Positions 2,514 through 64,000 of a DNA stretch of 64,000 nt are shown in pieces. Positions within the stretch are counted from its first letter, which is position 1; each line of letters starts with the position of its first letter. The stretch lies in assembly GCA_000146465.1 (NCBI GenBank), contig CP001946.1, one strand, 5' to 3'. The translations under genes and the position numbers were made by a program. Below the pieces are notes generated by a model. The model searched no databases and had not been told where the DNA came from. It was given only the letters and a program-made list of their open reading frames with translations.

Positions 2514-3284
2514 TTAATCCTCGTCTATATCCCCAAGCCCCAGATCTTTCAGCTTCTGCCTCACCTTCTCATAGGTGTCGTCGGGGTTTTTGACGGTTAT
2601 TCCATGGACATCCTTATGGATGTAGATTTCGTAGTCGTTTCCTCCCTCTTGGGTCATATCCCCGAAGAAATACACATTCTCAATTCCCTCCTTCTTTATG
2701 TGCCTCAGACAGTATGTCTTGTCCCAGCCCTTTGGGAAGCAGTCAATTGATATCTGTCCTCCAATCGAGAACACCATACAGCTACCTTTGAATTTTTCCC
2801 TCATGGCTGCAACCATCTTTTCTCGGAATTTCTCCTTCTTATCAATCTCAAAAAACTCCTTGCGCTCCTCCCTACTGCAATTCCTTCCTATCGGGCTTAT
2901 GTTAATCATGGAGTTCCTATATTCAATGAAGTTACCCCTTTTTATGGGAATTTCCAGCTTGCTAAGATACTCTAGGACAAAGTTGACAAACTCTTTGTAA
3001 AATTTCTCCCCAAGGACATCGATTATCTTTTCCTGAGACTCCAGAGCCCCTTTCTTGTAGAAGCTGAGACCGTTTTCTGGAAATCCATAATCAAATAGCT
3101 CAAGAAGATCGTCTCCAATTTGCTCCTTTTGCTTTTCAAGGTCTGATCCCCCCACAAACCCCAGGCAAACCTTCTTCTTAAGTTTCCTTACCATCTTCTT
3201 CATTTTCTCAGTCATCTGAGCCCTTGATTCCGAAAGCGTTCCGTCCACATCAAACAAAAAGATTGTCTTCTCGTCTTTTGCCAT
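2514..3284 (-). CDS. SEC53: phosphomannomutase (HAD family)
   Basis: MAKDEKTIFLFDVDGTL... carries the DVDGT HAD motif and shows PMM-like conservation throughout. The start is taken at the cat at 3282-3284; an upstream in-frame ATG at 3302 (MQTKWT-) is less likely. Confidence 0.85.
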   Translation of the reverse strand: MAKDEKTIFLFDVDGTLSESRAQMTEKMKKMVRKLKKKVCLGFVGGSDLEKQKEQIGDDLLELFDYGFPENGLSFYKKGALESQEKIIDVLGEKFYKEFVNFVLEYLSKLEIPIKRGNFIEYRNSMINISPIGRNCSREERKEFFEIDKKEKFREKMVAAMREKFKGSCMVFSIGGQISIDCFPKGWDKTYCLRHIKKEGIENVYFFGDMTQEGGNDYEIYIHKDVHGITVKNPDDTYEKVRQKLKDLGLGDIDED

Positions 3285-52082: not shown

Positions 52083-52165
52083 GGTGGCGTGGCCGAGCGG
52101 TCTAAGGCGGCAGACTTAAGATCTGCTATCGGAAGATGTCGTGGGTTCGAACCCCACCGCCACCA
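52083..52165 (+). tRNA. tRNA-Leu (anticodon UAA), class II with long variable arm
   Basis: Acceptor GGTGGCG/CGCCACC and a 3-bp D-stem (GCC/GGC) with an 11-nt D-loop. Anticodon stem GCAGA/TCTGC with loop CTTAAGA, so anticodon TAA. A 14-nt variable arm. T-arm GTGGG-TTCGAAC-CCCAC. Discriminator A. No encoded CCA. The A-box TGGCCGAGCGG and B-box GGTTCGAACC are internal. Confidence 0.8.
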
Positions 52166-55283: not shown

Positions 55284-57362
55284 ATGATCAAAAAAGACGC
55301 AGAAGAGATTCTTATGGATCCTCTTGCAGGAAACATCATTGATGCAGAGGAAATAGTTGCAAGGAGCGAGATAAGGGATGAGCAAGCAAGAGTTTTGGAA
55401 GAGGAAAAGGAAGATGGAAGAAAAGGATCCAGATATAAAAGGCTGCAGACTGTCTTGGGAGAAGGGACATTCAAGAAGGTTTACAAAGCAGTTGACCAGG
55501 AGGAGGGGAAGGAGGTTGCATGGAATGAGATCAAAATCAACGAGAAGGGGCAGGACAGCAAAGAGAGGGCATTATTTGCCAATGAAATAGCACTCCTGAA
55601 GTCTATTTCACATCCTAACATCCTTCGGATCCTCGACTATTGGTTTACGGCTGACAGCTTTATATTTATCACGGAGCTGATGAGTGGAGGAACACTCCGG
55701 GAGTACATAGCAGAGATAGGGGATCTGAACGTCAAGCTTATAAAGAAGTGGGGAAGGAACATTCTTGAGGGACTTGTGTATCTTCACAGCCAGGATCCTC
55801 CGATTATCCACCGGGATATTAAGTGCGAAAACATCTTTGTGAATGCAGCTCTTGGAGAGGTGAAGATAGGAGATCTTGGGGTTGCCAAGGAAAGAAGGAT
55901 GAAAAGATATACTGTTGTTGGAACTCCGCAGTTTATGGCAAGAGAAATGTTTGAGGGAGAAGGATATGGGGAGAAGATAGATGTGTATGCATTTGGGATG
56001 TGTTTGATTGAGATGGCAACGGGGGCGTATCCATATAGGGAATGCACTACGGCTGCAGAGGTCTACAAGGCAATTATACAAGGGGTTCCTCCTGTTGTCT
56101 TGAACTCTATCAAGGACGTATGTCTTAGGAATCTGATTATGAACTGCTTAGTCTCTGAAAAAGACAGGCTAAGGAGTGTGGATTGCTTGAAGCACCATTT
56201 CTTTGACAGTAGTAGCACATGCAATGGAGAATGCATTCCTGCTGAGTGCATGTCTGGAGTTCCTCTGACAGCACCTGCAAATGACATGGAAATAAGTTTT
56301 CTGTCATTCAAGGATAATGTAATTACATTTCAATTGTTTTTCATGAGCATGGCAAGGTTCATCAAGTTTGACTACGACCTCCAGTCAGACACTGTTGAGG
56401 ATGTTGCAAATGAGATGCTGGAGGAGGAGGTAGTATCTGAGGATCAGAGAGACACGCTTCTTGGGCTTCTATCACGGGGAATTGAAAAGGCAAAGCAGCG
56501 GATTGAAGAGATGGAGTGTAAGAATACAGAAGAAGAGATGAAGAAGTTGAGCATAGATACAGAGAAGGAAAAGAGCAAGGCAGAAGGGCCGAAGAATGAT
56601 TTCAACAAAATAACGGACAGAAATCTGAGTATAGAGGAGGTTGAATCGATGCTGGAGATAGATGTGAAGTTTTGCCAGGATGAGACCAGCCGTCTGTATA
56701 CCTGGTCCAGAACGGTAAGAAATGGGGATTCGAAAGTGGGGGTGGAAATTGGATCTTCTCCAGACCATTCGCCAGAACTATTACCCAGCGAAGGAATAAT
56801 GGAGGAACAGAAAAAGACTGGGGGAGGAAAGTGCTTCGACGAACTGGAGTGTCCCAATAGAAAATACGATGAAGATGTCTCTATTGAAGAGTTTGCAGCA
56901 GATGTTTCGGTTGCGACAAAGAGATCATCTGAAACAGTTACCAATTGGATAAAGGCATTCAAGTCGAATGATATCGACAGTGTGTTTGAACTAAAGATTC
57001 TTGTGGACGAGGACTGGGACAAGCTTGGGCTCACTGTTTTTTCGAGCCGAGCCATGAAGAACATGCTCTATGGAGTTGGCAAGATTCCTCTGAAGGAGAA
57101 GCAGCTTCCTACCAACACCTCGATCAAGGACTATGGAGGAGGGGTTGAGATCAAAGAGTTTCTCCATGAGATCGGGGCTATAGTTGGTAAGGACAAGTGT
57201 GTGTCTATCTGGGAAAGCAAACTTCTTGCACAGGATATTAGGACTGTCGAGGAGCTCCGATCGCTGCACCAGGACGACTGGGATAGACTGGGTCTATCTG
57301 TGTACTCGTGCAGGGTGATCAAGAATGTTATTTACAAAAAAGGAAGAGTAGTGCTTTGCTGA
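55284..57362 (+). CDS. WNK-family serine/threonine kinase with PF2/CCT-like autoinhibitory domain and two C-terminal SAM-like domains
   Basis: Gly-loop lysine with no beta3 lysine ([13 protein letters not shown]...VAWNEI versus WNK1 GRGSFKTVYKGLD...VAWCEL). Catalytic loop [15 protein letters not shown] matches WNK1 [27 protein letters not shown]...[30 protein letters not shown] parallels GTPEFMAPEMYE...[29 protein letters not shown]. The PF2-like region [25 protein letters not shown] parallels AIEFSFDLERDVPEDVAQEMVES. Two tandem SAM-like repeats (WIKAFK...[24 protein letters not shown] and [23 protein letters not shown]). Confidence 0.7.
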   Translation: [692 protein letters not shown]

Positions 57363-57497
57363 GCGACTAGCTGGCTCTTTACGATATTAAAGAACGGGTT
57401 TCTCCATAATCTATCTTGGGATTTTCGCAGTCTGTTATGTGGGAGGGATTTTGGAACTTTCTGGAGCAGGGAAGTTAAAAGAAAAGAAGGGTAGCCC

Positions 57498-57722
57498 ATG
57501 AGAAGGATGAGCAAGAGCTATGATGTTATTCAGATTCCAGGAAGTATCAAGCACTCAGACCTTCCCGAGAGAATGGAGATTGGAAAGCCCTTTGAGATTA
57601 ACGGAGACTTGTATATATGTGAGAAGAGGGGCGAAGGAATGATGAAGGTATGCTCTGAGAGCGAGGGAAGGACAAGCACGCCTGTCTTGAGTCGGGGGTT
57701 TTATGTAGTCCGGAGGATGTGA
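57498..57722 (+). CDS. small hypothetical ORF (74 aa)
   Basis: ATG-initiated, fills the 420-bp gap between the WNK kinase and PGI. No homology recognised, so it may not be a real gene. Confidence 0.2.
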   Translation: MRRMSKSYDVIQIPGSIKHSDLPERMEIGKPFEINGDLYICEKRGEGMMKVCSESEGRTSTPVLSRGFYVVRRM

Positions 57723-57786
57723 ATATGTCAAACATATTTCATAAATGATTGAAGTCTATATAAGAAAGCTAAAAGAATAAACAACA

Positions 57787-59310
57787 ATGAAGACAGAAAT
57801 TAAAGACTTGTTTGAGAAGGACAAGAACAGAGCCAAGAAGCTGGCCAGAAAAGTTGATGTGGGAAAGGAGTTTATATACTATGACTTCTCGAAGACTCAT
57901 ATCACGGAGGAAATCATTGACAGATACTTGGAAAAGATGGATGGATTTGGAGAAAAAATAGAGGGAATGTTTAATGGAGAAAAGATAAACTATACCGAGG
58001 ACCGGAAGGTTCTGCATGTGGCACTGAGGGATAAGGAAGTGCTGAGGGGGATTTCTGGAGAAGATGTGAAGCTGGACTCGGATCGTAAGATGGTTTATGA
58101 CGAGTTGATGAAGATCAAAGGATTTGTAAAGGATTTCGATGAAGGAAAGATATGTGGAGTAACTGGGAAGAGGTTAGAAATGATTGTCAACATAGGAATT
58201 GGAGGAAGTGATCTTGGGCCCAGGATGGTGTGCGATGCACTTGAGTACTATGGAAGGAAGGGGATAAAGACTTACTTTATCTCAAACATCGATGCAACGA
58301 ACACAATCAAGGTTTTTGAGAAGATTGACCCTGAAAGAGCTTTATTTATTGTGGTAAGTAAAACATTCACGACGCTTGAGACCATCAAGAATGCCGAGCT
58401 TTCAATGAGGTTTCTGGAGAAGAGGCTTGGTAAAGACAGAGCTGAGATTGCAAGTAAACATTTTGTTGCAGTGAGCTCGAATGTAGACGAAGTCAGGAAA
58501 CACAACATTTCCCGTGTGTTTTCGATGTGGGACTTTGTTGGAGGAAGATTCTCCCTGTGGTCTGCAGTTGGGCTGTCAATAGTTCTCTACATTGGATTTG
58601 ATAACTTCATATGTCTACTTAGAGGAGCTTCTGTTGTTGACGAATATTTCCGAAAGAGCCGGGGAAGGTCAAATGCTGAGATGATGCATGCGATTGTGGA
58701 GCTGTTCTATTCGGAGAGGGGATACAACAACAAGTGCCTTGTCTCCTATGACGAATACATGAGGAAATTCTATCTGTATCTCCAGCAAGCGGAGATGGAA
58801 AGTAATGGGAAACCATCGCAAAAAACAGACACAGGCTATATTATATGGGGAGGAAAAGGGACGGATGTTCAGCATTCGTTCTTCCAGTTGCTGCACCAAG
58901 GTACCAGGAAGATCTTGACGGAGCTTCTGATGCCTCTCAAACCTTTACATTCGGAGGAGGAGTACCATAGGATGGTTGTTGCAAATTGCTTGGCACAAAG
59001 CAGAGGCCTGATGATTGGAAAGGAAGATCCAAATCCAGAGAAGTCATTTGAAGGAGACAAACCAACCGTTACAGTCTGCTACTCTAAGCTCACGCCGGAG
59101 ACACTTGGCGCCATGATAGCGCATTATGAGCATAAGATATTCATTCTGGGGCTATACTGGGGCATAAACTCCTTTGATCAGCCTGGAGTTACTCTGGGAA
59201 AGAAGATAGCCATTGAAGTGCTTGAGTCCTTTGATGAGAAGAAAGAGTCGGAGAAGTTTGATGAGTCGACAAACGAGATGTTATGCCTGATGAGGAGCTG
59301 CAAGAGGTGA
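57787..59310 (+). CDS. PGI1: glucose-6-phosphate isomerase
   Basis: [11 protein letters not shown]..., GIGGSDLGP, the SIS domains and VVSKTFTT are the PGI signature regions. Confidence 0.9.
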
Positions 59311-59412
59311 TCTAAGATGGGCTCACGAGGGTACTACCTTAATAAAATCCTCTCTTTGGTTTGTGTTCTTTGAGATTTGGTGAACGTTTTTTGGAGGAGA
59401 GGAAAACCCTTA

Positions 59413-60108
59413 ATGTTTTCATTCAAGGAAAGGATGAAGACATTTGCTTCATGGCCTGAGAACTACGGTGTTGCAACGCCGGAGGGTCTTTCCATTGCAG
59501 GATTTATCTGCCTATCTACGGAAGAGAACAATCTGACGGTGGAGTGTGTGTATTGCAATAAGACACTGGAATGCTGGGAAAGGACAGACATGCCGGCAAA
59601 GGAGCACTACCTCCACATGAACAGCTGTCCACTTTTCAATGTGAACAGATTGGAGAGCAGGGTAAAGATGTTCAATGGATGGAGTCTCAAGGAGGCGAAG
59701 GCACTTGCAAGAATGGGGTTTGTTAAGTACAACCTTGGAGAGTCGGACTTTATCTTTTGCTATAAATGCGGATCGATCAACAGAAGCCATTTGTGTGAAA
59801 GAAAGAGAGGGCATCCATACAGCTTGGAGAAGCGTGGGAGTGTATTTTTTTACGACTTAATCGAAGGCATTTACAACAAAGAGCTGGTGAAGCTTACAGA
59901 GTACAATGTATATATTCCACAGCACACCAAAGAGTTTCTGAAAGAAGTTACCGGTGGTTGTTTGGGGTCGGTTTTTCGAAGTGTCGAGGATGTGATAGAA
60001 GAATACATGGGAAACAAGCTGTTTGAAATAGACAAGGCTATGAGCCATGATATCGAGAGAGCTCTTGATGAGGTGGTGGCGGGAATTGGAAAAAAAAGCC
60101 TGGGATGA
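59413..60108 (+). CDS. BIR-domain protein with two BIR repeats (survivin/Bir1-like)
   Basis: BIR1: RMKTFASWPENYGVATPEGLSIAGFICLSTEENNLTVECVYCNKTLECWERTDMPAKEHYLHMNSCPLF. BIR2: RVKMFNGWSLKEAKALARMGFVKYNLGESDFIFCYKCGSINRSHL.ERKRGHPYS. Both show the C..C...H......C pattern. The first ATG is at 59413; the track starts at a TTG. Confidence 0.65.
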   Translation: MFSFKERMKTFASWPENYGVATPEGLSIAGFICLSTEENNLTVECVYCNKTLECWERTDMPAKEHYLHMNSCPLFNVNRLESRVKMFNGWSLKEAKALARMGFVKYNLGESDFIFCYKCGSINRSHLCERKRGHPYSLEKRGSVFFYDLIEGIYNKELVKLTEYNVYIPQHTKEFLKEVTGGCLGSVFRSVEDVIEEYMGNKLFEIDKAMSHDIERALDEVVAGIGKKSLG

Positions 60109-60150
60109 GGATGTAGGCAATGATACGATCTTGGCCTGGGAAATTAGAGG

Positions 60151-60179
60151 TAAATTTTTTTTCGAGTCTACCCTTGTGA
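60151..60179 (+). promoter_or_regulatory. AAATTT-like plus CCC-like proximal promoter motifs upstream of RPS6
   Basis: taaattttttttcgagtctacccttgtga sits immediately 5' of the ATG at 60180. Confidence 0.4.
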
Positions 60180-60862
60180 ATGAAGGTAAGTGGACTTTGA
60201 AAGACTAATTTCAGTTAAACATAGCATATCCAACGAATGGTACACAGAAGATGTTTGAGATTGAAAGAAAGGTGGAATCAAGGCTTTACGACAAGAAGAT
60301 AGGAGATCAGTTTGATGGGGGAATTCTCGGAGAAGAGTTTGAAGGAACAATTATGGAGATCACAGGAGGAGACGACTATCAGGGCTTTCCCATGGTAGGG
60401 GGGCACTTGACGAAGAAGAGAGTAAGGCCTCTTCTATCGAAGGGGGATACAGGATACCGATGCAGACGCAAGGGAGAGAGGCGGCGCAAAAGCGTCCGTG
60501 GATCGATTGTTTCTGAGCAGACCTGTGTACTGAGCCTGATAATTCTGCGAGCCGGGGAGAAGGAGATAGATGGGCTTACAAATGTTGTCAATGACGTTTC
60601 CCATCTTCCCAGGAAGGAGAAGAAGCTTAGGAAGATGTTTGGGATTCCTGCAGAGGAAGAAAACGTTGTGGGATACATCAGGAACATATTTAAGTCTGAA
60701 TGTGAAGATCCAAAGAAGATACCCAAGATTCGGTGCAATGGAAAGAAAATAAGGAAGGAAAAAGAAAGAAGAGAGGAGGCTAGGAAGATCAGAGGAGAAA
60801 GAAGAAGAATATTGGAGGAGGAAAGGAAAGCATATCTTGAGAAGTACTTCAATAAAGCCTGA
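60180..60862 (+). CDS. RPS6: 40S ribosomal protein eS6, two exons: 60180..60185 and 60215..60862, with a 29-nt intron at 60186..60214
   Basis: The track ORF (60251..60862) lacks the S6 N-terminus. ATG AAG at 60180-60185 is followed by GTAAGTGGACTTTGAAAGACTAATTTCAG. The spliced product [30 protein letters not shown]... matches eS6 [31 protein letters not shown].... Downstream: ISGGNDKQGFPM-like ITGGDDYQGFPM, and RKGERRRKSVRG. Confidence 0.85.
60186..60214 (+). other. spliceosomal intron (29 nt) in RPS6
   Basis: GTAAGT donor after the second codon. ACTAAT branch motif 5 nt upstream of a TTCAG acceptor. Exon 2 is in frame with the downstream S6 ORF. Confidence 0.8.
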
Positions 60863-60883
60863 TTTATTTTCTAGCAATTCTGT

Positions 60884-61837
60884 CTATGGTTCCAGGCCCC
60901 AGTCCTTGCACCATTCTGGGAGGTTGGCTACATACTCTATTCCATTATATGTGTATTTCCAAGCATGAAGGCAGATATAGTAGTCCTTAGTGACGAAAGA
61001 CCTATTGTTTCTTCCTTTACAACTCCTTACCACATATTCGTATTTTCTTTTATCCTCAAAGCCACTTATCTCTGCATTGCAGGTGCTATCCCAAAGTGGC
61101 TGTGGCAACTCCCCATCCCCATACATGATGTCGTTTACAATTGGAAATCCTATACTTTGGAGATGAATTCTAATCTGGTGTGTGCGCCCGGTAATAGGCC
61201 TACATTCCACAAGCGAATGCCCATCTTTGTATGCTAGTCTTCTGAACAGTGTCAAGCATGCCTTTCCCTCGTCGCTAACATATCTGTGCTTTCCTTCGGC
61301 ACATGAGATCTTCTTATCTACATCTATGCTGTCAGGAAATAGTCCTTGTACCTTTGCGAGGTAGATCTTTCTGGCTTCTCTGATTGCTTCCAAGCATTTA
61401 GAATGGTTTTTCACTGCAACAATCAAGACCCCGGACACAGGCATGTCCAGTCTGTTGATGCAGGCCACCTTCTTGTCCCCAAAGAGTGCTCTTGTGACCG
61501 AGTATTCTCTATAACCTCCGGTGGGGTGGCATGGCATCCCCGGAGGCTTGTTCACGACAACATAGTCTTGCTCCTCCCTTATTATATCTATTTCCGGATG
61601 TGCCGGCTCATGAATGTGGACTGTATGCCTTATGACATCTCCGATTCGGAGTATTCTTCCGGGTTCCACAATCTCTTCGTTAACTGTTACTGCCCCGCAT
61701 TCCAACGCAGACAGAAAATAGTCCTTGGTTCTTGTTCTAAATTCCGAAGCAAGGACATCTATCACCGGTTTCTCACACCACCGTCCCTTAACGTTGGTTC
61801 TGAATGTGAAGAAGTATTCAGCCTCCCCTTTTGCCAT
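60884..61837 (-). CDS. RluA-family pseudouridine synthase (Pus/RPUSD-like) with N-terminal S4-like region
   Basis: YVVVNKPPGMPCHP, RLDMPVSGVLIVA and the catalytic HQIRIHLQSIGFPIVNDIMYG are RluA family motifs. Confidence 0.75.
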   Translation of the reverse strand: MAKGEAEYFFTFRTNVKGRWCEKPVIDVLASEFRTRTKDYFLSALECGAVTVNEEIVEPGRILRIGDVIRHTVHIHEPAHPEIDIIREEQDYVVVNKPPGMPCHPTGGYREYSVTRALFGDKKVACINRLDMPVSGVLIVAVKNHSKCLEAIREARKIYLAKVQGLFPDSIDVDKKISCAEGKHRYVSDEGKACLTLFRRLAYKDGHSLVECRPITGRTHQIRIHLQSIGFPIVNDIMYGDGELPQPLWDSTCNAEISGFEDKRKYEYVVRSCKGRNNRSFVTKDYYICLHAWKYTYNGIEYVANLPEWCKDWGLEP

Positions 61838-61916
61838 CCCAGGGCTGTATTTTCGGCTTCAAGTCCTTGGCCTTGCCCACATGTCTATTTAATTCTTGGA
61901 GAAAAAAGCCTTTCCC

Positions 61917-63113
61917 ATGAGGAACACAAACGAACTGGAGCTCTTGCAAATAACAAGTATAACCGCTCTGTCTCTGGTTGTCTATTCGTCTGGATACAGA
62001 AAAAGCATACTCAACGACTTTTTGTTCTACATAGTTCCCCAGTACTGTGCCGTGATGTTCCCAGACAGAATCTGGAGCACGTATCTTTGTTTAGCCATGC
62101 TCTTCAGATACTCACAAATCCAGAAATCTACAAACAGCAGTGAAAAAACTACGGTAATCGGATATTTAAGATTCACAATATCTCTTATAGTTGTGATTGC
62201 AATATACGGAGTGGACTTCTCGATATTTGACAGAAGACTTGGGAAGTCGGATTTTTTTGGAATCCAAATGATGGACATAGGTGTTGGAAGCTTCATTTAT
62301 AATAGCGGGGTTGTGGGCTGGAAAGGAAGGCCTTTAAGAAGGTGCATAAGGTCCTACCTAGTTCTTGTTATCCTTGGGTTTGTAAGGTACTTTGTTGTTA
62401 AGTGGTTTAATATCCACGTAAATCCAAGAGAGTACGGAATCCACTTAAACTTTTACTTTATACTTGCAGCTGTGAGACTCATATGTTCACTGATAGGGTC
62501 CAGATACAACTTTCTTCTGGGACTCTTTTTAATAACAATCTACGAAGTCGTTCTCAAGTTCTCTGGGTTGGTGGGCTTTATCTTTTCTGATCAGAGGAAA
62601 ACATTCCTGGAGATGAACAAGGAAGGACTAGTGGCGGTTATTCCATACACATCGATATTTTTGATGGCATCGGAGATTGGAAGAATATGCTCCTCCAAGG
62701 ACAAGGTAAGAAGCAAGGGATTTCAAGTCCTGAGGATGTCGGGTATATTTGGATGTCTCTATGCAGTGTCGCAGCTCTCCAACGAAGGATCTAGAAGATT
62801 GGGAAATGCGGGGTTTGTGTTCTGGATACTTACCCTTCACACCTTGCATATGGGGATATACATGCTTTTTGAAAGTGTGATTGTCCTACACAATCCATTG
62901 ACATCTATGTTCTGTAGTTCCAACATGATGTTTGTATTTTTGTTTTCAAACCTGATTGTCCTACTTGGAAACTTCTTTTATGATCTTGGGAGCTTTTCAC
63001 CTCTAGTTGCACATCTGAACATTCTTTCCTATCTGGTGCTTGTGTTTTCGATTCCAGCTCTGTTGGCGAGTAGGTTTGACCTGCGCTGTGTGGGGCTGGG
63101 ATACCGGTCCTGA
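61917..63113 (+). CDS. GWT1: GPI-anchored wall transfer protein 1 (GWT1/PIG-W inositol acyltransferase), polytopic membrane protein
   Basis: YGVDFSIFDRRLGK...MMDIGVGSFIYNSGVV and EYGIHLNFYFILA match GWT1/PIG-W signatures (YGVDFP.F.R..AK..T.G.SLMDLGVGSFVF; EYGVHWNFFFTLA). The first ATG is at 61917; the track starts at a TTG. Confidence 0.65.
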   Translation: MRNTNELELLQITSITALSLVVYSSGYRKSILNDFLFYIVPQYCAVMFPDRIWSTYLCLAMLFRYSQIQKSTNSSEKTTVIGYLRFTISLIVVIAIYGVDFSIFDRRLGKSDFFGIQMMDIGVGSFIYNSGVVGWKGRPLRRCIRSYLVLVILGFVRYFVVKWFNIHVNPREYGIHLNFYFILAAVRLICSLIGSRYNFLLGLFLITIYEVVLKFSGLVGFIFSDQRKTFLEMNKEGLVAVIPYTSIFLMASEIGRICSSKDKVRSKGFQVLRMSGIFGCLYAVSQLSNEGSRRLGNAGFVFWILTLHTLHMGIYMLFESVIVLHNPLTSMFCSSNMMFVFLFSNLIVLLGNFFYDLGSFSPLVAHLNILSYLVLVFSIPALLASRFDLRCVGLGYRS

Positions 63114-63148
63114 AAAGAAATAAAAGCTTATTGGACCCTTTTGTTGGT

Positions 63149-64000
63149 ATGAATAAAGAAGGCCATCGAATGGAACTGGAGGATGAAAGACATGCCATAA
63201 TATTGGAGAATGTCTTCTATCTTCTTTGTGGGGTTGACACCACCCACTTAAGGATAGGAGTGAAGGACAAGAGGTATGCATTGATAGGAGACCCGACATA
63301 TCCTCCTCAGCTTATTCTTCCGTTTGAATCGCTAGCAATCAATGTAAGAGTTCTCAACAAGTTTATATTGAAGTCACAGTATTCATCCGATACAATTCGA
63401 GAAATGGTAGGAGACTACTTTGAGGCTAAGATCGGCAAGTACTTGAAGGATCTTATGGGCCTTCGATGCCAAACACGGAGTATTGAGATGCTTATAGTGA
63501 GCCTTGGAAGCCGAGTCGAGGAGTTTGATGAGATGAAGGAAATTGTAGACGACATTAGGGACATGTCGGGAGTTCGGATACTGAACCATCTTAAGAAAAG
63601 AAGGGATAGAACTGTACATTTTCTAGGTCTTTATGATGATCTCATTAATCCTTGCATTCACCGAATAAGAGAAGAGGTGCAAGGTTGGGTTACAGAAGGG
63701 CTGATGCCGAGCAGTGAGTTTATGGTGAAGAAAAACGAGTGCTTGAATGAATTTACGGATTGTGTGTGGACACATTGGTATAGGATTGCCCAGGATAACG
63801 TGCCATACTTTTTGGAAGATCACAAGAACCTTATCTACAATTGTGGAAGGATAGTCAATCTCGGACGGATGATCCATGGGAAAAACATATTCCACAACTT
63901 GGCAGAGGAGTATGGGAATCTTGGGCTTACAGGGTTAAATTCATATCTGAACACACAGTTTTTAGAGTCACTTCGAAGTAGCCTTGAAAGGGAATTGGAT
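63149..64000 (+). CDS. hypothetical protein, 5' part only (ORF continues past the window end)
   Basis: An open frame from the ATG at 63149 to position 64000 (284 codons, no stop), in MNKEGHRMELEDERHAIILENVFYLLCG.... No homology recognised. The minus-strand ORFs in this interval are antisense to it. Confidence 0.4.
   Translation, partial: MNKEGHRMELEDERHAIILENVFYLLCGVDTTHLRIGVKDKRYALIGDPTYPPQLILPFESLAINVRVLNKFILKSQYSSDTIREMVGDYFEAKIGKYLKDLMGLRCQTRSIEMLIVSLGSRVEEFDEMKEIVDDIRDMSGVRILNHLKKRRDRTVHFLGLYDDLINPCIHRIREEVQGWVTEGLMPSSEFMVKKNECLNEFTDCVWTHWYRIAQDNVPYFLEDHKNLIYNCGRIVNLGRMIHGKNIFHNLAEEYGNLGLTGLNSYLNTQFLESLRSSLERELD

Follow-up and report, generated by a model that had tools for sequence, protein, structure and literature searches.

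Microsporidia of the genus Encephalitozoon carry a class of short introns, a catalogue of which was reportedly provided by Lee et al. 2010 (Mol Biol Evol 27:1979). These introns lie towards the 5' end of ribosomal-protein genes, measure about 25-35 nt, run from GT to AG and open with GTAAGT (Katinka 2001; Irimia & Roy 2008; Lee 2010; Grisdale 2013; Whelan 2019). Whelan et al. 2019 described the class as GT-AG introns of about 25 nt that occur chiefly in ribosomal-protein genes and as a rule begin in the codon after the ATG (PMC6349667). The branch consensus reported for E. cuniculi is CTAAYTT (Irimia & Roy 2008; PMC2483917). Published intron lengths range from 23 to 47 bp in E. intestinalis (PMC4355639) and from 22 to 76 nt in E. 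cuniculi (PMC3629993), and a reduced intron complement is common to the two species (Corradi et al. 2010; PMC4355639).

The introns of the ribosomal-protein genes S6 and S3A of E. cuniculi were listed by Peyretaillade et al. 2009, who also placed the S6 intron in the orthologue of A. locustae (PMC2803860). The same study corrected the start of E. cuniculi S6 to 95401-95403 of AL590445 (PMC2803860), which is the same base as the start of the public gene that we retrieved. All annotated introns of E. cuniculi were later found to be spliced by RNA-seq, in an organism with a reduced spliceosome and inefficient splicing (Grisdale et al. 2013; PMC3629993). For instance, 30 of the 37 introns are removed in less than 50% of transcripts, and 11 junctions shift between time points (PMC3629993). 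Expression of the E. cuniculi S6 gene, ECU05_0670, is high, at about 1000-1640 FPKM (PMC3629993). The U1 snRNA of Encephalitozoon, that of E. intestinalis among them, has also been found and has the 5' motif ACUUACC (Belkorchia et al. 2017; PMC5499648).

Yeast-type introns, with a TACTAAC branch and a GTATGT donor, resemble this class in the strict donor and branch consensus of intron-poor genomes and in their enrichment in ribosomal-protein genes (PMC2483917). The eS6 intron examined here differs from them in being an order of magnitude shorter and in having its branch A only 6 nt from the acceptor. In Saccharomyces cerevisiae, RPS6A and RPS6B also have an intron after ATG AAG, with a first exon of 6 nt. 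The spliceosome of Encephalitozoon has far fewer proteins than the one that serves yeast-type introns (PMC3629993, PMC5499648). It is already used as a model of minimal splicing, a picture that the eS6 intron leaves unchanged.

The eS6 gene of E. intestinalis

The window, that is, the whole 64-kb stretch of E. intestinalis DNA that was analysed, almost certainly holds the 5' end of the eS6 (RPS6) gene, orthologous to ECU05_0670 and interrupted by a canonical spliceosomal intron at 60186-60214. Exon 1 and the two splice sites were assigned by sequence reading, and the parts of the gene are as follows.

60180-60185, + strand: coding part of eS6 exon 1, ATG AAG (Met-Lys); every orthologue has ATGAAG, whether or not the intron is present
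60186-60214, + strand: eS6 intron, 29 nt, phase 0, GT-AG spliceosomal, GTAAGT...ACTAATTTCAG
60186-60191, + strand: 5' splice site of the eS6 intron, GTAAGT
60205-60211, + strand: branch motif of the eS6 intron, CTAATTT, with the predicted branch A at 60208
60213-60214, + strand: 3' AG of the eS6 intron
60215-60862, + strand: eS6 exon 2, Leu3 to Ala217 and the TGA stop, supported by Pfam coverage, by the substitution pattern and by an exact match to ADM11517.2

The full intron reads GTAAGTGGACTTTGAAAGACTAATTTCAG. Joining 60185 to 60215 creates the junction ATGAAG|TTAAACATAGC (ATGAAG|TTAAAC) and yields an eS6 of 217 aa. Exon 2 opens with TTA AAC ATA GCA TAT CCA ACG AAT GGT ACA CAG AAG ATG, in the same frame as the mechanically listed open reading frame (ORF), which runs from an ATG at 60251 to a stop at 60860-60862 and so omits the exon-2 stretch 60215-60250. 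Left unspliced, the frame opened by the ATG at 60180 reads MKVSGL*, an ORF of six codons, while the exon-2 frame is shut just upstream by a TAA at 60206-60208, inside the branch motif. The length of the intron, 29 nt, is 2 mod 3. Because both relevant frames carry stops, unspliced RNA is unable to encode full-length eS6.

The restored N-terminus completes the family domain. Against Pfam PF01092 (Ribosomal_S6e; curated cut-off 26 bits), the spliced product covers profile positions 1-125 of 125 with residues 1-125 and scores 163.8 bits, while the bare ORF covers positions 16-125 only and scores 140.2 bits. The bare ORF, an internal-start form that begins MFEIERK at Met15, is short of 14 residues (profile positions 1-15), fewer than the approximately 25 given in the initial annotation. 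That annotation had otherwise placed a 29-nt intron after the second codon, with boundaries that were recovered on recomputation, and its spliced N-terminus is exactly the one obtained here. The best solved relatives of the spliced product are the eS6 chains of the microsporidian ribosomes 7QEP, 6RM3 and 6ZU5. In 7QEP, the ribosome of E. cuniculi, the eS6 chain, as deposited sequence, is the 217-aa form beginning MKLNIAYP.

The description of the intron as unannotated did not hold. An exact-sequence look-up matched the spliced 217-aa protein letter for letter to ADM11517.2, "40S ribosomal protein S6 [E. intestinalis ATCC 50506]", and three newer assemblies also carry it. Positions 57180-63862 of the window are identical to the corresponding locus of a newer E. 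intestinalis assembly (6683/6683 nt), where the eS6 gene model has a span of 683 nt and a coding sequence of 654 nt; the public model therefore contains the 29-nt intron. Public models in E. intestinalis, E. hellem, E. romaleae and E. cuniculi span 683-685 nt and encode a 217-aa product. A protein search additionally returned the S6e of E. hellem (217 aa, 87% identity), together with an ORF call of 203 aa, 100% identical, in a raw assembly. The 'unannotated' label is an artefact, since the earlier reading worked from the ORF list. The eS6 intron is already annotated in E. intestinalis, its class is already published, and it is an ordinary, typical member of that class.

A GTAAGT donor, an adjoining CTAAYTT branch motif, a length of 29 nt (inside the published ranges for E. 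intestinalis and E. cuniculi), disruption of the frame and conservation in orthologues mark the eS6 intron as a U2-type intron of the Encephalitozoon class. As in other short introns of the genus, CTAAYTT lies directly against the 3' AG, the 5' splice site falls in or just past the codon after the ATG, and a retained intron disrupts the frame; there is no notable difference between them. The donor and the base before it (60185-60191, G|GTAAGT) complement the U1 motif ACUUACC exactly (PMC5499648).

The closest described relative is the intron of ECU05_0670 (NP_597409.2). The gene is orthologous and lies in the same synteny block, and its intron also falls in phase 0 after Met-Lys, starts with GTAAGTGG, ends with CTAATTTYAG and is preceded by AAATTT...CCC signals. 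It differs from that of E. intestinalis in length (31 vs 29 nt), in its interior bases and in its end (TTTTAG vs TTTCAG).

A second intron and the expectation by chance

Another member of the class lies near the start of the window, in the gene for eS1/S3A.

1683-1718, + strand: eS1/S3A intron, 36 nt, directly after the ATG at 1680-1682, GTAAGT...GATCTAACTTTTAG (CTAACTTTTAG end)
1719-2435, + strand: eS1/S3A exon 2; the spliced 239-aa product is exactly ADM11471.1, the E. intestinalis 40S ribosomal protein S3A

The protein that follows this intron belongs to the Ribosomal_S3Ae family. The initial annotation had drawn attention to the resemblance between the 3' ends of the two introns, and this is borne out. 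Both have the donor GTAAGTG and the 3' end CTAAYTTYAG, both lie close to the start codon, and both are already annotated; the S3A intron differs in measuring 36 nt, in its place behind codon 1 instead of codon 2, and in having CTAAC in place of CTAAT. The further suggestion that both belong to a single constrained class, which a reduced spliceosome recognises, is correct as an idea and is not new, having been described in print (PMC2483917, PMC2803860, PMC3629993, PMC6349667).

The motif was also compared with chance, using 300 first-order Markov simulations of 64 kb on both strands. When linked to a start codon (ATG-N0-6-GTAAGT...YTAAY...YAG), its expected number per 64 kb is 0.14 and it was seen twice, counting both strands, and both occurrences head ribosomal-protein ORFs. 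When the ATG requirement is dropped (GTAAGT, YTAAY and YAG within 60 nt), 1.1 are expected and two were seen, which is not unusual. The case for the intron thus rests on the restored protein N-terminus and on the orthologues, because the bare motif is unremarkable by chance.

A looser scan of the whole window (GT[AG][AT]G[TA]...YTAAY...AG, with rescue of an ORF required) returned the S6 and S3A introns as the sole credible finds. A 74-nt GT...AG candidate at 59793-59866 (+), inside the coding region of the neighbouring BIR-domain gene, was rejected as spurious: its donor, GTGTGA, is poor, and its frame differs from that of the BIR ORF.

Conservation among orthologues

An intron directly behind ATGAAG also occurs in E. 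hellem, E. romaleae, E. cuniculi, an Encephalitozoon-like contig (SRR21633403), Ordospora and Astathelohania. The intron measures 29 nt in E. intestinalis, E. hellem, E. romaleae and Ordospora, 30 nt in the Encephalitozoon-like contig and 31 nt in E. cuniculi. An alignment of the 5' ends of six orthologues (the four named Encephalitozoon species, the Encephalitozoon-like contig and Ordospora) shows ATGAAG|GTA.GTG and CTAA.TT.AG| to be invariant. Between these blocks the interior varies in both sequence and length; the lengths are not multiples of 3 and the changes ignore the reading frame. Downstream of the intron, codons 3-14 hold 12 variable columns, 10 of them at third positions and 11 of them synonymous. 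This pattern is the signature of translated sequence.

Intronless orthologues are also informative. The eS6 genes of Vairimorpha necatrix and Vittaforma corneae run from ATGAAG straight into CTC AAC ATT and ATA AAC ATT, respectively, and the exact splice junction is thereby confirmed. In two other fungi that were checked, Monosporascus and Tulasnella, S6 lacks an intron after codon 2; ATGAAG runs into codon 3, and the introns lie elsewhere. Two metagenome scans gave no matches to the spliced junction or to the intron-bearing 5' end, in a collection that evidently does not include the known-positive JGI Ordospora contig. These negatives carry no weight, because that contig was also unmatched by the intron-bearing pattern.

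The orthologues bear directly on whether there is a functional intron at all. If translation began at the ATG at 60251, the product would have 203 aa and the GTAAGT...CTAAT..AG signals would be coincidental. Such a reading could draw on the chance expectation of the bare splice motif, about one per 64 kb without the ATG, and on the existence of deposited proteins of exactly this truncated form (AGE95461.1, KAM0672426.1, XP_060277746.1 and the S6-A of A. contejeani). We nevertheless regard it as highly improbable. The 36 nt upstream of the ATG at 60251 evolve as coding sequence (11/12 synonymous) and encode the conserved N-terminus of eS6, and intronless orthologues begin MKLNIA or MKINIA. In addition, codon 15 of the E. 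romaleae gene (CP003522.1, extracted locus 3001-3090) is ATA (Ile), where the other species have ATG, so the start of the short ORF is not conserved. The E. romaleae ORF lacks any internal start close by, and a near-full-length protein is possible there from the spliced form only.

Truncated eS6 records

S6 records without the first exon persist in public databases. Examples include those of E. cuniculi (AGE95461.1, 203 aa), O. colligata (KAM0672426.1, 204 aa) and O. pajunii (XP_060277746.1, 204 aa), while the form of 217/218 aa stands in the reference records for these species or for sister species. The truncated records stem from annotation without intron calling, and the genomic DNA behind them carries the same ATGAAG-intron arrangement, which argues further against a start at 60251.

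A similar case is found in a distant microsporidian, Astathelohania contejeani, whose deposited '40S ribosomal protein S6-A' (207 aa) begins MFTLD at an internal Met and is N-terminally truncated. The corresponding DNA (SBIQ01000090.1, extracted locus 737-800) reads ...ACCCCCAAAGCC ATGAAG GTAAGTGAAATTATTAATTTAG TTAAATTTAGCATATCCG... and contains a 22-nt intron that is absent from the public annotation. This intron, GTAAGT...TTAATTTAG, occupies the same position as that of E. intestinalis eS6.

The practical value of these observations is small: a mechanical ORF list shortens eS6 by 14 residues. The same error is still present in the deposited annotations of A. contejeani and O. pajunii, in one O. 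colligata record and in the record of one E. cuniculi strain.

Start codon and gene neighbourhood

Three features precede the eS6 start codon.

59377-60108, + strand: gene with a BIR (inhibitor-of-apoptosis/survivin-like) domain; the mechanical ORF starts at a TTG at 59377, and public models of 231 aa start at the ATG at 59413
60152-60162, + strand: AAATTT-like signal AAATTTTTTTT, typical of microsporidian ribosomal-protein genes and kept in all six aligned orthologues
60171-60173, + strand: CCC-like signal, 6 nt 5' of the eS6 start codon; the CCC columns are invariant in the six-orthologue alignment, and the signal is described in PMC2803860

The E. intestinalis sequence before the start codon, AAATTTTTTTTCGAGTCTACCCTTGTGA-ATG, is the orthologous AAATTT/CCC signal. 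The supplement of Peyretaillade et al. 2009 lists E. cuniculi S6 as 'AAATTTTTTTCCAGGGCCACCCTTGCAA* (intron)' (PMC2803860), an entry matched by AAATTTTTTTT. The position of the CCC-like signal marks the ATG at 60180 as the true start.

An N-terminus supplied by an alternative upstream exon, which the initial annotation had named as one finding that would count against its intron, was weighed together with translation from the non-ATG codon at 60215. On the Ordospora contig, a gene call in prokaryotic style did begin at TTG, the equivalent of 60215. However, E. intestinalis has TTA at this position and E. hellem has CTG, and a non-ATG start fails because of this. As for an upstream exon, the BIR gene ends at 60108, leaving just 71 nt between its stop and the eS6 start codon, and it is the ATG at 60180 that the AAATTT and CCC signals directly precede. 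Met-Lys is, moreover, the universal start of eS6, which speaks against both variants. Either variant is scarcely credible on this evidence.

The gene order around the locus (window positions 57787-63113) is PGI, BIR, S6, a pseudouridine synthase on the opposite strand, GWT1 and a gamma-tubulin complex protein. The order from PGI to the gamma-tubulin gene is common to E. hellem, E. romaleae, E. cuniculi, the SRR21633403 Encephalitozoon-like contig and the Ordospora contig. It is partly kept in Vittaforma, and Vairimorpha has the same neighbours in a rearranged order.

Proposed splicing and possible function of the intron

On the preferred reading, that of a spliced eS6 gene starting at the ATG at 60180, a short pre-mRNA would begin a few bases upstream of this ATG, behind the AAATTT-like and CCC-like signals. 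The reduced microsporidian spliceosome would then remove 60186-60214 by canonical U2-type splicing. U1 snRNA (ACUUACC) is predicted to pair with the donor G|GUAAGU, and U2 with the branch motif ACUAAU, bulging A60208; both pairings are proposed from established knowledge of the spliceosome and, for U1, from the cited sequence. The lariat would form 22 nt from the donor, and the acceptor would be the first AG, 6 nt downstream of A60208. Met-Lys would thereby be joined to Leu-Asn-Ile-Ala, giving the full 217-aa eS6. Excision in E. intestinalis itself is expected by analogy with E. cuniculi. By the same analogy, splicing of eS6 is probably inefficient in E. intestinalis, as measured in its relative, and much eS6 RNA may stay unspliced because most short introns of E. 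cuniculi are removed in less than half of transcripts (PMC3629993).

Poor splicing raises the question of whether a real intron could also act as a throttle, with inefficient or regulated splicing, and retention leading to the six-codon dead-end ORF, setting the output of eS6. Yeast ribosomal proteins, which can autoregulate by splicing, provide a parallel. The E. cuniculi data are compatible with such control, given the low splicing of 30/37 introns and the 11 junctions that vary over time, and autoregulation was raised there as a possibility (PMC3629993). An intron at the eS6 position is also retained in distant microsporidia and lost in others. However, the same study regards a reduced, inefficient spliceosome together with weak decay as the likelier cause of the low splicing (PMC3629993), and binding of eS6 to its own pre-mRNA has no support. 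The interior of the intron is not conserved, and no regulatory element is therefore visible beyond the splice signals. We consider a throttle unlikely.

A broader version of this idea is that the Met-Lys intron of eS6 is ancient and microsporidia-wide, persists because it serves a function, for instance to limit or time the output of eS6 by deliberately poor splicing, and is missing from several annotations. This view builds on the presence of the intron in Encephalitozoon, Ordospora and Astathelohania and, according to the literature, in Antonospora. Taken as a whole, it appears doubtful. Alternatively, the intron may survive only through failure of loss.

With regard to RNA genes in the window, an Rfam scan of the 64 kb for snRNA genes found none. 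The sole Rfam or ARAGORN match in the window is a tRNA-Leu (anticodon TAA) of 83 nt at 52083-52165 (+).
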